Assembly (NCBI GenBank): GCA_012514175.1
Contig: JAAZAU010000012.1
Span: 3,479-67,478, forward strand
DNA length: 64,000 nt
DNA from: Parcubacteria group bacterium
GTDB taxonomy: Bacteria > Patescibacteriota > Minisyncoccia > Phycocordibacterales > WO2-35-19
Direction of reading: 5' to 3'
This document shows positions 3,263 through 63,714 of this stretch, one piece after another. Made by a program: the position numbers and the translations under genes. Below the pieces are notes generated by a model. It was not told the origin of the DNA. It did not search any database and saw nothing but the letters and a program-made list of their open reading frames with translations. Position 1 is the first letter of the stretch. Each line of letters begins with the position of its first letter.

Positions 3263-5572
3263 ATGCCTGAAAAAATCAAAAAAAAGCCAAAAAAGTATGC
3301 AATGGAGGATTTTATTAAAAAAGTTCAAAAGCGAGATGGTTCAATTGTTAAATTTGATTTTGAAAGGATTGTCATAGCGATAACCAAAGCTATGAAAGCT
3401 GCAGATGAAGGCTCTGAAGGTGAGGCTAGATTAGTCGGTCACAAAGTGCTTGGTGAATTAGTTAGAATTTCTAAAAAATTTAAAAATTTTGTGCCTACAG
3501 TTGAAGGCATTCAAGACATCGTAGAAAAAGAGTTGATGGCTTCCGAGTATCCCAACACCGCGAAAGCTTTTATTCTTTACCGAGCCGAAAGAACTAAAAT
3601 GCGCGAACAAATTAATCTTATACCTCAAGATGTTAGAGAAAAGATTAAAGAAAGCAGTAAGTATTTCAAAAGTTCATACCAAGAATTTATTTTTTATCAA
3701 TTTTATTCTAGATGGGTAGATGAGTTGGGTCGTAGAGAAACTTGGGTTGAGTCTATAGACAGATTTATGGATTTTATGAAAGAAAATATGGGCAACAAGC
3801 TTACTGCAACCGAATATTCCGAAGTGCGAAAAGCTATTTTAGACCAAGAGATTTGTCCCTCTATGCGATTACTTTGGTCTGCTGGTAAAGCAGCTAGGAA
3901 AACTAATGTCTGTGCTTATAACTGCGCTTATATAGCTCCAGTTTCGTGGCGCGATCTTTCGGAGATAATGTATATATCAATGTGTGGCGCAGGTTGTGGT
4001 TTTTCAGTTGAACCAGAAAATGTTGGTAAGTTTCCTCAAATTCAAAAACAAACTGGAAAAATGGCTCCAAAAATAATCGTTGAAGACAGTAAGGTTGGTT
4101 GGTGTAAAGCTTTTGTTGCCGCTTGTGAAGCTTGGGAAAATGGTAAAGATGTTGAAATAGATTATTCCTTGGTTAGACCAGCGGGTGCCAAATTGCAGAC
4201 TATGGGTGGCCGAGCTTCTGGTCCTGAGCCACTTAAAGAATTAATGTCTTTTACAAAAAGAAAAATATTATCCAAACAAGGCCGAAGATTGTCTTGTCTT
4301 GATTTACACGACATTATTTGCCAAATCGGTTTGATAGTGGTTGCGGGCGGTGTTAGACGTAGCGCCCTTATTTCGCTTTCTTCACTTGATGACATAGAAA
4401 TGCGTGATGCAAAAAAAGGTGCTTTTTGGCAAACAGAAGGGCAACGTTCAATGGCTAATAATTCAGCAGTTTATGAGACCAAGCCTTCAGCTGAAGAGTT
4501 TTTAGAAGAATGGACAGCTCTCGTTACTTCTCATTCTGGTGAACGTGGCATTTTCAATCGTGGTGGTCTTGCTACTCAAATGCCTAAAAGACGCTGGGAA
4601 GTAGTAAAAAACGCTAAACAGCTCGGTATGAATCCTTGTGGCGAAATTTATCTACAATCTAAACAGTTTTGCAATTTAACATCTATTGTAGTGCGCCCCA
4701 AGGACAATATGGAAGACTTAAAACGCAAAATGAGATTGGCTACTCTAGTTGGTAGTTATCAAGCCACTCTTACTGATTTTGAATATCTTTCAAAAGAATG
4801 GAAAGAAAATTCTGAAAAAGAACAACTCTTAGGTGTTTCTATCACTGGCTATTATGATAATAAATTGGTGCGTGATGAAAAAAATTTAAGAGATTTACGC
4901 GAGGAAGGTGTCAAGACTAACAAAAAATATGCCAAAAGATTTGGAGTTAACGAATCCACCTCTATTACTTGTGTTAAACCTCATGGCAATTCTGGTCAAT
5001 TATTAGGTGTGGGTTCTGGTATGCACACTTGGTACGCTAAATATTACGTTCGTAGAGTGCGTATTTCGGTTACTGACCCTCTTTTAAAATTAGCTAAAGA
5101 TCAAGGTGTGCCTGTTCATCCAGAAATTGGTTACTCTACTTCAAATGCCACTACTATGGTTCTTGAATTCCCGTGCAAAGCTCCAGAAGGCGCAATCGTC
5201 AACAAAGATGTAAACGCTTTAGAGATGTTAGAGGAATGGAAAAAACTCAAAATTAATTTCACCGAACATAATCCTTCCGTAACGATCTATGTTGGCGATG
5301 ATGAATGGATCGCTGTCGCTAATTTTATTTATAAAAACTGGGACATAATTGGTGGACTTTCGTTCTTGCCACGTGACAACCATGTTTATAAACTGGCTCC
5401 TTATGAAGAAATTACGAAGGAGGAATACGAAACTCGTCTGAAAGCCCTCGGACAACTTGATTTTTCTAGACTACTTATTTATGAAAAAAGCGACCAAACC
5501 ATTGGAGCCAAAGAACTTGCTTGCGCTGGCGGTACTTGTGAAATCAGTGATTTTGTCAAAGTAGAAGCATAA
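3263..5572 (+). CDS. nrdJ: Ribonucleotide reductase, class II (adenosylcobalamin-dependent), with N-terminal ATP-cone
   Basis: ATP-cone (VQKRDGSIVKFDFERIVIAITKA), a large RNR catalytic barrel, and the C-terminal redox Cys pair CAGGTCEISDF. Confidence 0.8.
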   Translation: MPEKIKKKPKKYAMEDFIKKVQKRDGSIVKFDFERIVIAITKAMKAADEGSEGEARLVGHKVLGELVRISKKFKNFVPTVEGIQDIVEKELMASEYPNTAKAFILYRAERTKMREQINLIPQDVREKIKESSKYFKSSYQEFIFYQFYSRWVDELGRRETWVESIDRFMDFMKENMGNKLTATEYSEVRKAILDQEICPSMRLLWSAGKAARKTNVCAYNCAYIAPVSWRDLSEIMYISMCGAGCGFSVEPENVGKFPQIQKQTGKMAPKIIVEDSKVGWCKAFVAACEAWENGKDVEIDYSLVRPAGAKLQTMGGRASGPEPLKELMSFTKRKILSKQGRRLSCLDLHDIICQIGLIVVAGGVRRSALISLSSLDDIEMRDAKKGAFWQTEGQRSMANNSAVYETKPSAEEFLEEWTALVTSHSGERGIFNRGGLATQMPKRRWEVVKNAKQLGMNPCGEIYLQSKQFCNLTSIVVRPKDNMEDLKRKMRLATLVGSYQATLTDFEYLSKEWKENSEKEQLLGVSITGYYDNKLVRDEKNLRDLREEGVKTNKKYAKRFGVNESTSITCVKPHGNSGQLLGVGSGMHTWYAKYYVRRVRISVTDPLLKLAKDQGVPVHPEIGYSTSNATTMVLEFPCKAPEGAIVNKDVNALEMLEEWKKLKINFTEHNPSVTIYVGDDEWIAVANFIYKNWDIIGGLSFLPRDNHVYKLAPYEEITKEEYETRLKALGQLDFSRLLIYEKSDQTIGAKELACAGGTCEISDFVKVEA

Positions 5573-34795: not shown

Positions 34796-35140
34796 AAATA
34801 TACTCTTTAAATAAGAGCTGTTTTTTGAGTTCGTTGACATATCTTGAAATAACAAAGTACAAGAAAAGAGTTGTTCACTTTGAGCCTAGGTAAGGTTTGG
34901 TGAGCAACTGCAAGTCTCAAATTTTAAGTAGTCCGTTTAGACTATTATAAAAATGTTGAAAACTTAGTGATTTCGAAAAAACTGACCAGGATCAAATCAA
35001 GAGTAAAAACTAAAAAATATTTTTTGTTTTGTTCCGTTCTGTTTATTTTGATTTATCAAAATTAAGCATCTGCCAACAAGGCAGAAACTAAAGTAACGAA
35101 AATTATCCGTCTCTTTGGCGGATAAAATAAACTTCGTTTT

Positions 35141-36820
<1,680 letters not shown>

Positions 36821-36912
36821 GCTTTGCTTTGCAAAGTGTCAACGGAGGTTGGGTTTTGAAAAGCCTTTGGCTAACAAAATCCACGAACGGAACAAAACAA
36901 AAAATATTTTTC

Positions 36913-36940
36913 AAAAAAGCGCTTATCTGAGCGCTTTTTT
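36913..36940 (+). terminator. Intrinsic terminator directly downstream of 16S
   Basis: aagcgc-ttatctga-gcgctt hairpin + tttt. Confidence 0.6.
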
Positions 36941-36967
36941 GTTACCATTTTGTTGTCATTTTTCCTC

Positions 36968-36997
36968 TTGACTTTTATACACGAATTATGCTATAAT
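36968..36997 (+). promoter_or_regulatory. Near-consensus extended -10 sigma70 promoter (module 1)
   Basis: -35 ttgact, 18 nt spacer, tgc-tataat. Confidence 0.55.
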
Positions 36998-37023
36998 TAG
37001 GGGTAGGAAAGGAGGAAATTATA

Positions 37024-37251
37024 ATGAAAAATTTCCTTATCAGTGTTGTTGTTTTTTTCTTTTTTTGCTTTGTTCTGCACCTTGTTGCAGAGCAAAGCAG
37101 CAAAAAGATGTTGTTTGTTGAGAAGGTTTGGCCCGATGGTCCAATAGTGAGGATTGTAAACCATAAGGGCCAAGAGGTTAGCATTGACACTAACCTCGAA
37201 AATAGGACTTATGAAGTAATCTGGGTCGCCCCGGAACACTTTCGTAAATAA
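37024..37251 (+). CDS. Small secreted protein (75 aa; signal peptide + about 50 aa mature domain)
   Basis: Strong SD aaaggagg 8 nt upstream of the ATG; hydrophobic N-terminus MKNFLISVVVFFFFCFVLHLVA; elevated GC relative to neighbours. Confidence 0.5.
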   Translation: MKNFLISVVVFFFFCFVLHLVAEQSSKKMLFVEKVWPDGPIVRIVNHKGQEVSIDTNLENRTYEVIWVAPEHFRK

Positions 37252-37269
37252 GTAAAAGGGGCGACCTAA

Positions 37270-37300
37270 GCGGCATAGTTACAGTTTATGCCGCTTTTTT
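37270..37300 (+). terminator. Intrinsic terminator of module 1
   Basis: gcggcata-gttacagtt-tatgccgc hairpin + tttttt. Confidence 0.6.
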
Positions 37301-37301
37301 C

Positions 37302-37329
37302 TTGCAAAAATTATTTTTTGTGCTATAAT
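37302..37329 (+). promoter_or_regulatory. Near-consensus extended -10 sigma70 promoter (module 2)
   Basis: -35 ttgcaa, 16 nt spacer, tgc-tataat; shares the gctataatta core with module 1. Confidence 0.5.
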
Positions 37330-37373
37330 TATAGCAGAATAACACCACCAATCAAAAACAAAAAGGAGGTAAG

Positions 37374-37613
37374 ATGACTTGGAAAAAAGTGGCGGAAGGT
37401 TTGTTTACTGTCTCTTTTCTGATTGCCTGCGTTGTGATTGGATGGGTGATCAGAGGTTGGACGTTCGGAGTCGGTATCGCAATAGGAGCACTGACAGTGT
37501 GGCTGTTGCTGAACCGGCGATCCTCAAAACCTGAGCTTTTCGTTGTGGTCAAAAGCTACAACGAGAAACAGGTAGCGGACAATTGGCGCGGCCTGAATGA
37601 TCAGGATATTTGA
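37374..37613 (+). CDS. Small membrane protein with two predicted TM helices (79 aa) and a charged C-terminal tail
   Basis: SD aaggaggt 3-4 nt upstream of the ATG; two hydrophobic helices (GLFTVSFLIACVVIGWVI and FGVGIAIGALTVWLLL); about 48-50% GC against a roughly 36% background. Confidence 0.5.
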   Translation: MTWKKVAEGLFTVSFLIACVVIGWVIRGWTFGVGIAIGALTVWLLLNRRSSKPELFVVVKSYNEKQVADNWRGLNDQDI

Positions 37614-37635
37614 TCATGGGCCGCCAAAACAAATC

Positions 37636-37675
37636 AGGAGGTGAATCAAACGTTCGCCTCCTTTTTCTTTTTCTT
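37636..37675 (+). terminator. Intrinsic terminator of module 2
   Basis: aggaggtg-aatcaaacgtt-cgcctcct hairpin + tttttctttttc. Confidence 0.6.
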
Positions 37676-37746
37676 GTTTTAAATAATATTTTTTGTTATA
37701 TTTTTAATAGATTTGATCCGCCTTTGCTAAAGCTTTGGCGGAATAA

Positions 37747-37824
37747 GCGCGTGTAGCTCAGTCTGGTTAGAGCACCCCACTGATAATGGGGAGGTCTCAG
37801 GTTCGATTCCTGACACGCGCACCA
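37747..37824 (+). tRNA. tRNA-Ile (anticodon GAT), CCA encoded
   Basis: Acceptor gcgcgtg/cacgcgc, anticodon loop ctgataa, T-arm tcagg-ttcgatt-cctga, 3' acca. Confidence 0.85.
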
Positions 37825-37852
37825 TATTTTTAAAAAACCTCAAAAAATTAAT

Positions 37853-62703: not shown

Positions 62704-62779
62704 GGGCCGTTAGCTCATTTGGTAGAGCGCCTCATTTGCACTGAGGAGGTGGCGGGTTCGAATCCTGTACGGTCCACCA
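62704..62779 (+). tRNA. tRNA-Ala (anticodon TGC), G3:U70, CCA encoded
   Basis: Acceptor gggccgt/acggtcc with a G3-U70 pair; anticodon loop tttgcac. Confidence 0.85.
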
Positions 62780-63001: not shown

Positions 63002-63243
63002 ATTTTTTGCCGATCTTTTCCCTTAGAAAACTGTTCAACAAAACCGAGTCTATTTCAGTTTTTAGGGTTTTCTGCAAAATGGGTTCTGACTTTTTCAAAC
63101 AAACACCACCAAATTGAATTTATCACCTTGTTCGCTGTTCCGCAAAAAAAGTTTTCTTTTCGCTTGATATGTTAATATAATTTCGTTATTATTGTTGCGG
63201 AGTTAATACAGTCTGTCTATTTTCAAACCAAAGGAGCTTTGAG

Positions 63244-63714
63244 TTGCAAGAATTAAAGAAATTTGTTTTTGAAGCGAAACAAGCAGGTTTTGCTCCCGGC
63301 AACCTTGGTATTAAAGAAAGCGATGGTTCCAAGACCATTATTTTTGAGAAAAATGACTGGAAACATCATAGCAACTATTTCGGCGGTGACCCTTATAGTG
63401 GTCGCGAAATTGTTTTATTCAAAGGGAAACCTATCTGGATAATGTTGTATTATGGTTGGGTAATTCTCAACGGTCACTACATCAGCACAAGGAAGATCTA
63501 CAACTGTCTGCGAGAAGCCTTGCTCGCCATTCCAGAAGACGGCCCTTATCGGGGACCACGAACCTTCTATCAGACAGAAACAAAAAATTTGATTTACACA
63601 AATTCTTGGATGGGGGAGATTAGTTGCTTCTCTGGCAAGGAAGCAGTCTACCTAAATGATCAAGCAGTTTACATCGCCACTTATTTGGGTGGCATGATTG
63701 ATCAGAAAAAATAA
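63244..63714 (+). CDS. Hypothetical conserved protein (156 aa), TTG start, elevated GC
   Basis: SD aaaggag 6 nt upstream of the TTG; about 43% GC against a roughly 36% background; no confidently recognisable domain. Confidence 0.45.
   Translation: MQELKKFVFEAKQAGFAPGNLGIKESDGSKTIIFEKNDWKHHSNYFGGDPYSGREIVLFKGKPIWIMLYYGWVILNGHYISTRKIYNCLREALLAIPEDGPYRGPRTFYQTETKNLIYTNSWMGEISCFSGKEAVYLNDQAVYIATYLGGMIDQKK

Follow-up and report, generated by a model that had tools for sequence, protein, structure and literature searches.

Two small membrane-protein genes with Shine-Dalgarno-like leaders in a probable conserved slot behind an anti-Shine-Dalgarno-less 16S rRNA gene of Parcubacteria

Introduction

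The mRNA of Escherichia coli lpp (Braun lipoprotein) is monocistronic, very stable and highly structured, and encodes an abundant envelope protein of 78 amino acids (aa). Other well-known small transcripts are the type I toxin mRNAs of hok/Sok and aapA1/IsoA1 and the dual-function small RNAs (sRNAs) RNAIII/hld, SR1/SR1P and SgrS/SgrT. Amongst the Bacteroidia, whose ribosomes are blind to the Shine-Dalgarno (SD) sequence, rpsU is a rare, strongly SD-led gene which is autoregulated (PMC7797042, PMC9976891, PMC13000453), and loss of the anti-SD, with CCUCCU missing at the 16S rRNA 3' end, has been described for a subgroup of the Parcubacteria (Tsurumaki et al. 2022, PMC9297842). Here we report on two small open reading frames (ORFs), ORF1 and ORF2, found between the 16S rRNA and tRNA-Ile genes in a Parcubacteria metagenome-assembled genome (MAG) from an anaerobic digester, using 64,000 nt of contig JAAZAU010000012.1 (GCA_012514175.1) which we refer to as the window and whose positions serve as coordinates throughout.

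The two ORFs had first been read as a foreign island, acquired horizontally, with products resembling bacteriocin/immunity, toxin/immunity or holin-like pairs (the original prediction). The explanation we prefer, and hold with moderate confidence, is that they are native genes for small envelope proteins, strongly expressed from stable and structured mRNAs, and that the interval is not a foreign island: it would be a gene slot which a clade of anti-SD-less Parcubacteria has conserved behind its autonomous 16S unit.

Results

Two monocistronic units between 16S and tRNA-Ile

The interval contains two independent monocistronic units, each with a promoter, an AGGAGG leader, a small membrane-protein gene and a terminator. 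The original prediction had described two such autonomous modules, and all of their features were found in place:

36968-36997, plus strand: promoter P1, TTGACT-18-TGcTATAAT (scan score 11/12)
37009-37015, plus strand: SD-like AAGGAGG of ORF1, in a leader of ~20 nt and 8 nt before the ATG
37024-37251, plus strand: ORF1, 75 aa, whose N-terminus is a transmembrane (TM) or signal segment ahead of a conserved, β-rich domain of ~45 aa
37174-37197, plus strand: conserved hairpin within the ORF1 coding sequence (GAGGUUAG...CUAACCUC), from pairing, covariation and the RNAalifold consensus
37268 to about 37301, plus strand: intrinsic terminator of ORF1, a hairpin and T-run (37268-37296 in the terminator scan)
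37302-37329, plus strand: promoter P2, TTGCAA-16-TGcTATAAT (scan score 10/12)
37363-37369, plus strand: SD-like AAGGAGG of ORF2, in a leader of ~38 nt
37374-37613, plus strand: ORF2 of 79 aa, which forms a two-TM hairpin and ends in a conserved tail, KS[YF]xxxQVxDNWxG
37636 to about 37668, plus strand: intrinsic terminator of ORF2 (AGGAGGUGaaucaaacguUCGCCUCCU and T-run; 37636-37662 in the terminator scan), with an equivalent in the related locus L009

The scan scores of P1 and P2 bear out their description as near-consensus extended -10 promoters, and the two have the gctataatta core in common (repeat D5). P1 has a counterpart scoring 11/12 in L009 and L010 (related loci are given as L-numbers), and TTGACx-17/18-TGnTATAAT also follows the 16S terminator in L014, L016, L020, L024 and L026-L028. 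At the position of P2, L009 has TTGTCT-17-CATAAT preceded by TG, and the ORF1 terminator of this locus retains the stem with a shorter loop.

The pattern of substitutions indicates that ORF1 and ORF2 are real genes under purifying selection. In comparison with L009, the mature part of ORF1 has proportions of non-synonymous (pN) and synonymous (pS) differences of 0.18 and 0.96, with differences divided 12/9/32 amongst the three codon positions, and the tail of ORF2 has a pN of 0.23 and a pS of 0.51; the hydrophobic parts of both proteins are fast-evolving. An 80-aa ORF on the minus strand (36997-37239), which is called by some gene finders, was rejected as it is not conserved in L009 and conflicts with the third-position pattern of the plus frame. 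A structured non-coding RNA in place of genes was also rejected, since there was no Rfam match at gathering or permissive thresholds and the codon-position pattern is that of coding sequence. The same organism is represented by 24 contigs which are 99.9-100% identical, and in eight fetched loci standing for these the sole variant in the 1066-nt interval was A/G at 37347, in the ORF2 leader (L002 and L006); with near-identical contigs and a single leader polymorphism, population variation therefore carries no signal of selection.

Relatives of ORF1 and ORF2 occupy the same position behind 16S

An exhaustive HMMER search of 1.84 billion representative proteins with an ORF1 profile found only six small relatives of 67-86 aa (P0003, P0005, P0007, P0008, P0009 and P0011), each with an N-terminal TM segment and a domain of ~45 aa, and the family amounts to about six 50%-identity clusters among 15 billion proteins. 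These relatives were found by protein similarity and so independently of 16S, and the layout was read wherever DNA was retrieved. The ORF1 loci L009, L010, L026, L027, L028 and L029-31 are all directly behind an anti-SD-less 16S gene. Past the 16S tail (GGAAUAUUUCAAGG or GGAUUAUUUCAA) come the trailer motif and a terminator, and then a promoter of the form TTGACx-17/18-TGnTATAAT; a G-rich motif precedes the start codon by 5-9 nt, and the ORF, closed by a terminator of its own, adjoins tRNA-Ile. In L009 (GCA_964459755.1) the order is 16S, terminator, P1, ORF1, terminator, ORF2, terminator and tRNA-Ile, and the gene order is shared with the window (enolase is 81% identical and ORF1 55-64%); the nearest ORF1 relative is 64% identical at the protein level. 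Clade relatives are labelled Taylorbacteria, Zambryskibacteria and Minisyncoccia.

We also searched species-representative genomes for the 16S tail and obtained 15 loci with 75-98% 16S identity, 13 of which were informative. In these, tRNA-Ile or tRNA-Leu follows 16S within 350-2300 nt, and what lies between is mostly a single small TM ORF or a pair of them, on the same strand as 16S. Two extra members of the ORF1 family were recovered, one directly behind 16S in L016 and the other ~1.8 kb downstream in L017, where a 433-aa ORF lies between it and the 16S gene. ORF2 has relatives in L009 and L024 (a clear case, ...VKSFDKNQVVDNWHG), and on sequence resemblance L020 may be a second ORF2-family member among the 16S-tail loci. 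(In a side observation, the partial 16S gene of L010, which is from groundwater, has an AT-rich insertion of ~150 nt at about positions 55-200 not found in the 16S of the window; the BLAST match between the two starts at position 188, and Rfam aligns the L010 gene from position 1.)

The two genes need not occur together, as L010 and L016 have ORF1 but no ORF2, and L024 has a relative of ORF2 but no ORF1. On either side of the ORF2 unit of the window lie 37-nt direct repeats which are 73% identical (repeat D1, 37295-37331 and 37670-37706) and correspond to the promoter regions of ORF2 and tRNA-Ile; in L010 there is a single copy of this promoter block and the ORF1 terminator abuts the tRNA promoter directly. 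The bracketing and the lack of ORF2 in L010 suggest that ORF2 is a later cassette and no obligate partner of ORF1.

These findings decide against the foreign origin that had been proposed for the locus. The original prediction had suggested examining the interval between 16S and tRNA-Ile in related genomes, and it is occupied by orthologues at the same position and with the same signals (L009, L010, L016, L026-L028 and L029-31). No relatives were found in viral and plasmid collections, there are no att-like direct repeats at the locus, where the only flanking repeats are the promoter-block copies, and no mobility context was seen in the flanks (RNase R, enolase and pyruvate phosphate dikinase, PPDK). 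A scan of genome contigs with an ORF1 protein pattern gave no relative, and word-index searches with ORF2 and with its L009 homologue each matched only the query itself.

The same evidence bears on a horizontally acquired bacteriocin/immunity, toxin/immunity or holin-like pair, which we regard as the least credible explanation. It would account for the hydrophobic N-terminus of ORF1 with its LVA-EQ sequence and the two-TM protein with a charged tail that follows, for the atypical GC and third-position GC (GC3), and for a weak match of ORF1 to Pfam YxzE (its best family match, with E 0.17 and 13.4 bits against a cutoff of 40), which covers only the signal segment at residues 1-28. However, the two genes are separate units divided by a terminator and a promoter, each is found without the other, and the family members from the protein search keep the position behind 16S and apparently do not share a cleavage site. 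Genes for transporters, lysins or phage functions are missing from the flanks (RNase R, enolase, PPDK and a glycerate-kinase-like gene), the viral and plasmid collections gave no relatives, and neither protein has a family match over threshold.

Raised GC3 is maintained in orthologues

ORF2 has a GC content of 48.3% compared with 35.4% for the window, as had been noted before, and the contrast in GC3 is stronger than was claimed. GC3 is 0.447 for ORF1 and 0.537 for ORF2 against a background of 0.259±0.030 (43 genes), neither value is reached by any of the 206 coding chunks (240 nt each) taken from the window, and the synonymous-codon usage scores of both ORFs are outside those of all 206 control chunks. 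The atypical composition is thus confirmed, but its reading as a sign of foreign origin is not, as raised GC3 is common to the orthologues: in L009 it is 0.476 for ORF1 and 0.433 for ORF2 with flanking genes at 0.22-0.27, and in L010, which has no ORF2, it is 0.395 for ORF1 with flanking genes at about 0.30. As synonymous sites are saturated between the window and L009, the shared high GC3 suggests a maintained equilibrium and not the trace of a recent import or a lag in amelioration.

The composition could alternatively have come from higher-GC donors if cassettes of promoter, ORF and terminator were exchanged among related Parcubacteria by homologous recombination in the conserved flanks formed by 16S, promoter or terminator, and tRNA-Ile, to which we attach a rather small probability. 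The content of the slot does vary (ORF1 family, ORF2 family and other small TM ORFs), ORF2 is bracketed by promoter-block repeats and absent from L010, GC3 is above the host background in three AT-rich genomes, and conservation is much higher in the regulatory DNA of the flanks than in coding DNA. Against this, no near-identical donor copy was found, the closest ORF1 relative being as distant as reported above, and the gene order shared by the window and L009 is accompanied by a divergence of ORF1 that fits the rest of the genome. A foreign GC3 should also have decayed given the saturation of synonymous sites, and the synonymous-permutation test described below indicates that codon placement, and not composition alone, has been selected.

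A further gene with some of these characteristics lies elsewhere in the window. This is a DUF5680 gene with a TTG start (63244-63714), downstream of tRNA-Ala(TGC) at 62704-62779, and its region (63140-63714) has a promoter-like TTGATA...TATAAT, an SD-like AAAGGAG and a GC3 raised to 0.43.

The mRNAs are predicted to be strongly structured

High GC3 and odd codon usage accompany a predicted mRNA structure far stronger than composition would give. Measured against dinucleotide shuffles, the predicted folds of the ORF1 family have z-scores of -5.4 for the window, -8.1 for L009, -4.8 for L010, -5.5 for L026, -3.4 for L027, -2.5 for L028, -2.3 for L030 and -2.1 for L016, and those of ORF2 are -4.1 for the window and -2.3 for L009, while 56 control coding chunks gave -0.21±1.09 with a minimum of -2.9. 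When the terminator hairpins were removed, the two window transcripts retained z-scores of -5.4 and -6.1. In six of seven genes, the native sequence folded better than permutations preserving both the protein and the gene's own codon counts (z -2.7 to -7.0).

The conserved hairpin of ORF1 has the form GAGGUnnn...nnnACCUC. Its eight pairs are 100% paired in five selected homologues, with compensatory changes in three pairs, and 0/500 shuffles reached the observed pairing or covariation score (slid registers were 25-50% paired); it is also present in the RNAalifold consensus. The hairpin is kept in L026 even though the 3' arm there reads Phe-Thr-Ser and not Asp-Leu, which suggests selection at the RNA level. 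It is absent or rearranged in L016, L028 and L030.

Such structure might mean that these are dual-function RNAs tied to the rRNA locus, combining a structured RNA and a small protein, the ORF1 transcript above all, with candidate roles in 16S maturation, in translation control or as the partner of a factor that reads CCUCC or GGAGG. We consider this doubtful, although it would explain the adjacency to 16S, the conserved structure and the retention of both SD-like (GGAGG, GAGGU) and anti-SD-like (ACCUC) motifs. The linkage to the 16S 3' flank in 6/6 members from the protein search and in two from loci selected by 16S, fold z-scores far outside those of coding controls, the L026 hairpin kept despite changed amino acids, and an SD-like motif conserved without any 16S CCUCC are all in its favour. 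On the other hand, selection is clear at the protein level, so that the RNA is at least an mRNA; there is no Rfam match even at permissive thresholds and no target or partner was found; the hairpin is not retained by three of the loci, and synteny can persist without a functional link.

The folding of the transcripts, with the purine motif and start codon predicted to be paired, would also suit a type I toxin-antitoxin-like or hok-like arrangement, in which small hydrophobic proteins are made from folded, stable mRNAs silenced by antisense RNA. The products here are small membrane proteins, and a promoter-like site on the minus strand (37355-37328, TTGATT-16-TATAAT, 10/12) is aimed at the 3' end of ORF1. 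However, this site is a by-product of the palindrome TATAATTATA in P2; it is not seen in L009, nor in L010, which lacks both P2 and ORF2. It is the soluble domain of ORF1 that is conserved and not the TM segment, synteny is strictly vertical and single-copy with no PADLOC match, and at 75-79 aa the proteins exceed typical type I toxins, all of which leads us to see this as very unlikely.

Strong SD-like motifs face a 16S rRNA without an anti-SD

The 3' tail of the 16S gene in the window (36667-36680) reads GGAAUAUUUCAAGG instead of GGAUCACCUCCUUU and thus has no anti-SD, and CCUCC, CUCCU and UCCUC are found nowhere in the gene (35139-36680). The GGAAUAUUUCAAGG-type tail is common to L009-L028. 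The 64 kb contain seven AAGGAGG/CCTCCTT sites, four of them within this 1 kb, and apart from ORF1 and ORF2 no intergenic ORF of 30 aa or more in the window has a GGAGG at the proper distance from its start. The energies of duplexes with the canonical anti-SD are -11.6 and -12.9 kcal/mol, compared with a median of -0.3 kcal/mol for 44 large window ORFs, only two of which reach -6, and 0.7% of random 20-mers reach -9 kcal/mol; the earlier statement that SDs of this strength are exceptional here was well founded.

The motif is also retained by relatives, with a GGAGG type in seven of the eight ORF1-family leaders checked (-8.7 to -15 kcal/mol) and the AAGGAG of the ORF2 leader in L009 and L024. 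Over the clade, 53% of the small ORFs behind 16S (n=19, chosen by eye and from related lineages) reach -8 kcal/mol, whereas among 57 large ORFs of these loci the share is 4% (Mann-Whitney p = 5e-6). Many genes of the window have no SD but an extended -10 (TGnTAtAAT) which ends 6-10 nt before the ATG, and are therefore probably leaderless or near-leaderless; examples of this box are found upstream of the following positions:

12472, 20371, 30265, 44320 and 56921, plus strand: extended -10 box near the ATG
19163, 27465, 34690 and 62615, minus strand: extended -10 box near the ATG

Two places where the anti-SD might have gone were considered and rejected. CCUCCUU at 36813-36819 is one arm of a hairpin in the 16S trailer, and this hairpin is deleted in L009 and covaries elsewhere (GUCCC/GGGAC in L024 and ACCCC/GGGGC in L014). 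The first hairpin past the 16S tail looks complementary in L026, L028 and L010 but not in the window or L009, and duplexes within the same genome (-8.8) are no better than those between genomes (-8.2); no covariation was seen between the 16S 3' extension and the leaders.

In most leaders the G-rich core is itself predicted to be paired (P 0.5-1.0), and the SD-like motif, that of ORF1 in the window included, is usually predicted to pair with U/C-rich early codons. Because 16S contains no CCUCC, such pairing in cis is likelier than a classical SD role, and the purine-rich motif would most likely act in this manner by giving structure to the initiation region or to the mRNA 5' end. It seems improbable to us either that a second, GGAGG-reading route of initiation or control serves a tiny set of genes behind 16S in a clade where almost every other gene is translated without SD or leader, or that the ORF1 transcript is a ribosome-linked structured RNA which also encodes a membrane protein; the first of these would require a GGAGG reader that has so far gone unrecognised, such as a trans-acting RNA with CCUCC, a protein, or a differently matured rRNA end. 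A mature 16S 3' end at or near ...UUUCAAGG would fit the absence of an anti-SD, while an extended or spliced end with CCUCC would dissolve the paradox.

We note that in L030, a more distant relative, between the ORF1-like gene and tRNA-Ile (3410-3500), there are hairpins of UUCCUCCUUU/AAAGGAGGUG and GGAGGAUUU...AAAUCCUCCUU in which an SD is paired with an anti-SD sequence, and that the 16S tail of this locus is also without CCUCC.

Two small-protein families without known relatives in family or structure collections

Hydropathy gives one N-terminal hydrophobic segment for ORF1 and two for ORF2, which confirms the two-TM character proposed for the latter. The original prediction of a signal peptide in ORF1 holds for the hydrophobic segment. 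LVA|EQ in the window and LIA|EW in L009 look like signal-peptidase sites, while P0005 and P0007-P0011 have TM anchors without such a site, which is thus apparently not conserved in the family. The AlphaFold2 (AF2) model of ORF1 made with seven sequences (pLDDT 79) has a TM helix at 2-25, a three- to four-strand sheet and a short helix (with two sequences, AlphaFold gave a pLDDT of 63 and the model was unusable), and it is the soluble domain and not the TM segment which is conserved within the family. ORF2 has NRRSSK and the conserved tail in addition to its hydrophobic segments, and by the positive-inside rule both of its termini should be cytoplasmic.

Searches of Pfam, NCBIfam, PADLOC and PHROGs gave only sub-threshold matches, and these were to TM segments. 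A PHROG holin model matched only the L024 relative (E 0.34), no lysin or phage genes lie near the two ORFs of the window, and neither a sequence-profile search of solved structures nor Foldseek against the PDB provided a lead (best E 0.7, TM-score <0.4). The JGI/IMG name for ORF2, 'type IV secretory pathway TrbD component', was rejected, as there is no VirB3/TrbD match in Pfam or NCBIfam up to E 10 and E 1, respectively, and no type IV secretion genes in the flanks; it looks like an artefact of TM-segment similarity.

The 16S unit and flanking genes

The 16S gene, with a processing stem and a terminator to itself, is a closed unit of transcription, and the features around the two small genes are:

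35013-35039, plus strand: 5' arm of the 16S leader-trailer processing stem, the exact reverse complement of 36885-36911
35139-36680, plus strand: 16S rRNA gene (Rfam small-subunit rRNA match of 1305.9 bits, model positions 1-1533)
36885-36911, plus strand: 3' arm of the processing stem (GAACGGAACAAAACAAA...), kept across the clade
36913-36941, plus strand: intrinsic terminator of the 16S unit (AAAAAAGCGCT-tatctg-AGCGCTTTTTT), read from the sequence and paired in the predicted fold
37674-37702, plus strand: putative promoter of tRNA-Ile, TTGTTT-17-TGtTATATT, read from the sequence
37747-37824, plus strand: tRNA-Ile (GAT), from tRNA and Rfam matches

The stem of 27 perfect base pairs encloses the 16S gene only, and its 14-nt core matches exactly on both strands. 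L009, L010, L014, L016, L020, L024 and L026-L028 also carry the trailer motif GAACGGAACAAAACAAA, and the 230-nt 16S trailer has a fold z-score of -8.4. The terminator is near-identical in L009 and L010, where the scan picked up the L010 copy on the minus strand. The tRNA-Ile promoter is putative, as the site scores under the -35 threshold of the scan; this promoter-like block is almost invariant in L009 and L010.

No 23S gene follows 16S downstream, so the locus is not a 16S-23S spacer of an rrn operon and the rRNA genes are unlinked. RNase R is found upstream of 16S, and downstream of tRNA-Ile there is enolase on the opposite strand, followed by PPDK and the glycerate-kinase-like gene. An Rfam scan of 36450-37850 passed only 16S and the tRNA, with other matches far under threshold.

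Discussion

In the explanation we prefer, of native and strongly expressed genes in a conserved slot, both units would be transcribed constitutively and strongly, their structured mRNAs would be long-lived, and the small proteins made from them would be abundant in the envelope. The small β domain of ORF1 would be outside the cell, with the protein either anchored or secreted; ORF2 would form an N-in/C-in hairpin and have its tail in the cytoplasm.

Several points weigh against this. Where transcription starts, and how abundant and stable the mRNAs are, has been deduced from the DNA; the z-scores for structure come from predictions, and the covariation comes from 3-5 sequences that are related to one another. 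The motif core of L010 is mostly unpaired in the prediction (P 0.33), and pairing in cis leaves the exact SD consensus and SD spacing in seven of the eight ORF1-family leaders unexplained. The clade small ORFs belonging to neither family were picked by eye, and the DUF5680 gene also combines an SD-like motif with high GC3, which may place that gene in a class of acquired genes. Finally, neither protein matches a known family or fold, and a function cannot be attached to them from sequence or predicted fold. The alternatives given above rank by our confidence from dual-function RNAs, through cassette exchange and then type I toxin-like genes, to a bacteriocin/immunity island.

As the anti-SD loss is known from a subgroup of the Parcubacteria, the two genes provide a compact natural test of what replaces SD control, with a promoter, canonical SD and spacing, small ORF and terminator kept across class-level divergence beside a 16S rRNA unable to pair. 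If the motif is functional, there would be either a new GGAGG reader or an SD-like sequence kept for a purely structural role in the mRNA, and either outcome bears on start-site choice in reduced genomes. There is also a caution for annotation, since high GC3 and an SD motif in an AT-rich, SD-less genome mimic horizontal transfer while here probably being maintained natively. Two uncharacterised small-protein families are defined, and both are candidate abundant components of the envelope in uncultured episymbionts, given how strongly mRNA folding has been selected; the peptides VWPDGPIVR, TYEVIWVAPEHFR and QVADNWR would show translation if detected in metaproteomes.

In its expression logic the locus most closely resembles lpp, with genes of ~75-80 codons, each having a strong promoter and intrinsic terminator of its own, an N-terminal export or anchor segment, and strong mRNA structure. 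The window ORFs differ in having no lipobox and no similarity to lpp in sequence or fold, their abundance and half-life are predicted, and the genes are fixed behind 16S in an organism without an anti-SD. The type I toxin mRNAs and dual-function sRNAs are also short folded transcripts which encode small, mostly hydrophobic proteins and have the initiation region in structure, but the locus here has no conserved antisense promoter and no known RNA target, and is distinguished by the conserved soluble domain of ORF1 and by vertical, single-copy synteny. The likeness to class II bacteriocin operons is in the order of a small exported peptide gene and a small multi-TM protein gene; here, however, the two are not co-transcribed and are no obligate pair, have no transporter or family match, and sit at a housekeeping locus with vertical inheritance.

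For rare SD-led genes in an SD-less lineage, the closest analogue would appear to be rpsU of the Bacteroidia (PMC9976891, PMC13000453), where SD disuse is also genome-wide and very few genes have a strong conserved SD, implying a special regulatory route. The Bacteroidia have kept CCUCC in 16S, where it is sequestered by bS21, bS18 and bS6, whereas there is none in 16S here, and the SD-led genes of the window encode small membrane proteins and not a ribosomal protein. The 16S of the window fits the subgroup of Parcubacteria without an anti-SD described by Tsurumaki et al. 2022 (PMC9297842), and the portions of that paper considered here describe no SD-bearing genes or genes linked to the 16S 3' flank for these lineages. 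A 16S gene with its own terminator and no 23S after it is like the unlinked rRNA genes already reported (Brewer et al., bioRxiv 10.1101/705046), and what is new here is the probable conservation of a protein-coding slot between 16S and the remnant spacer tRNA.

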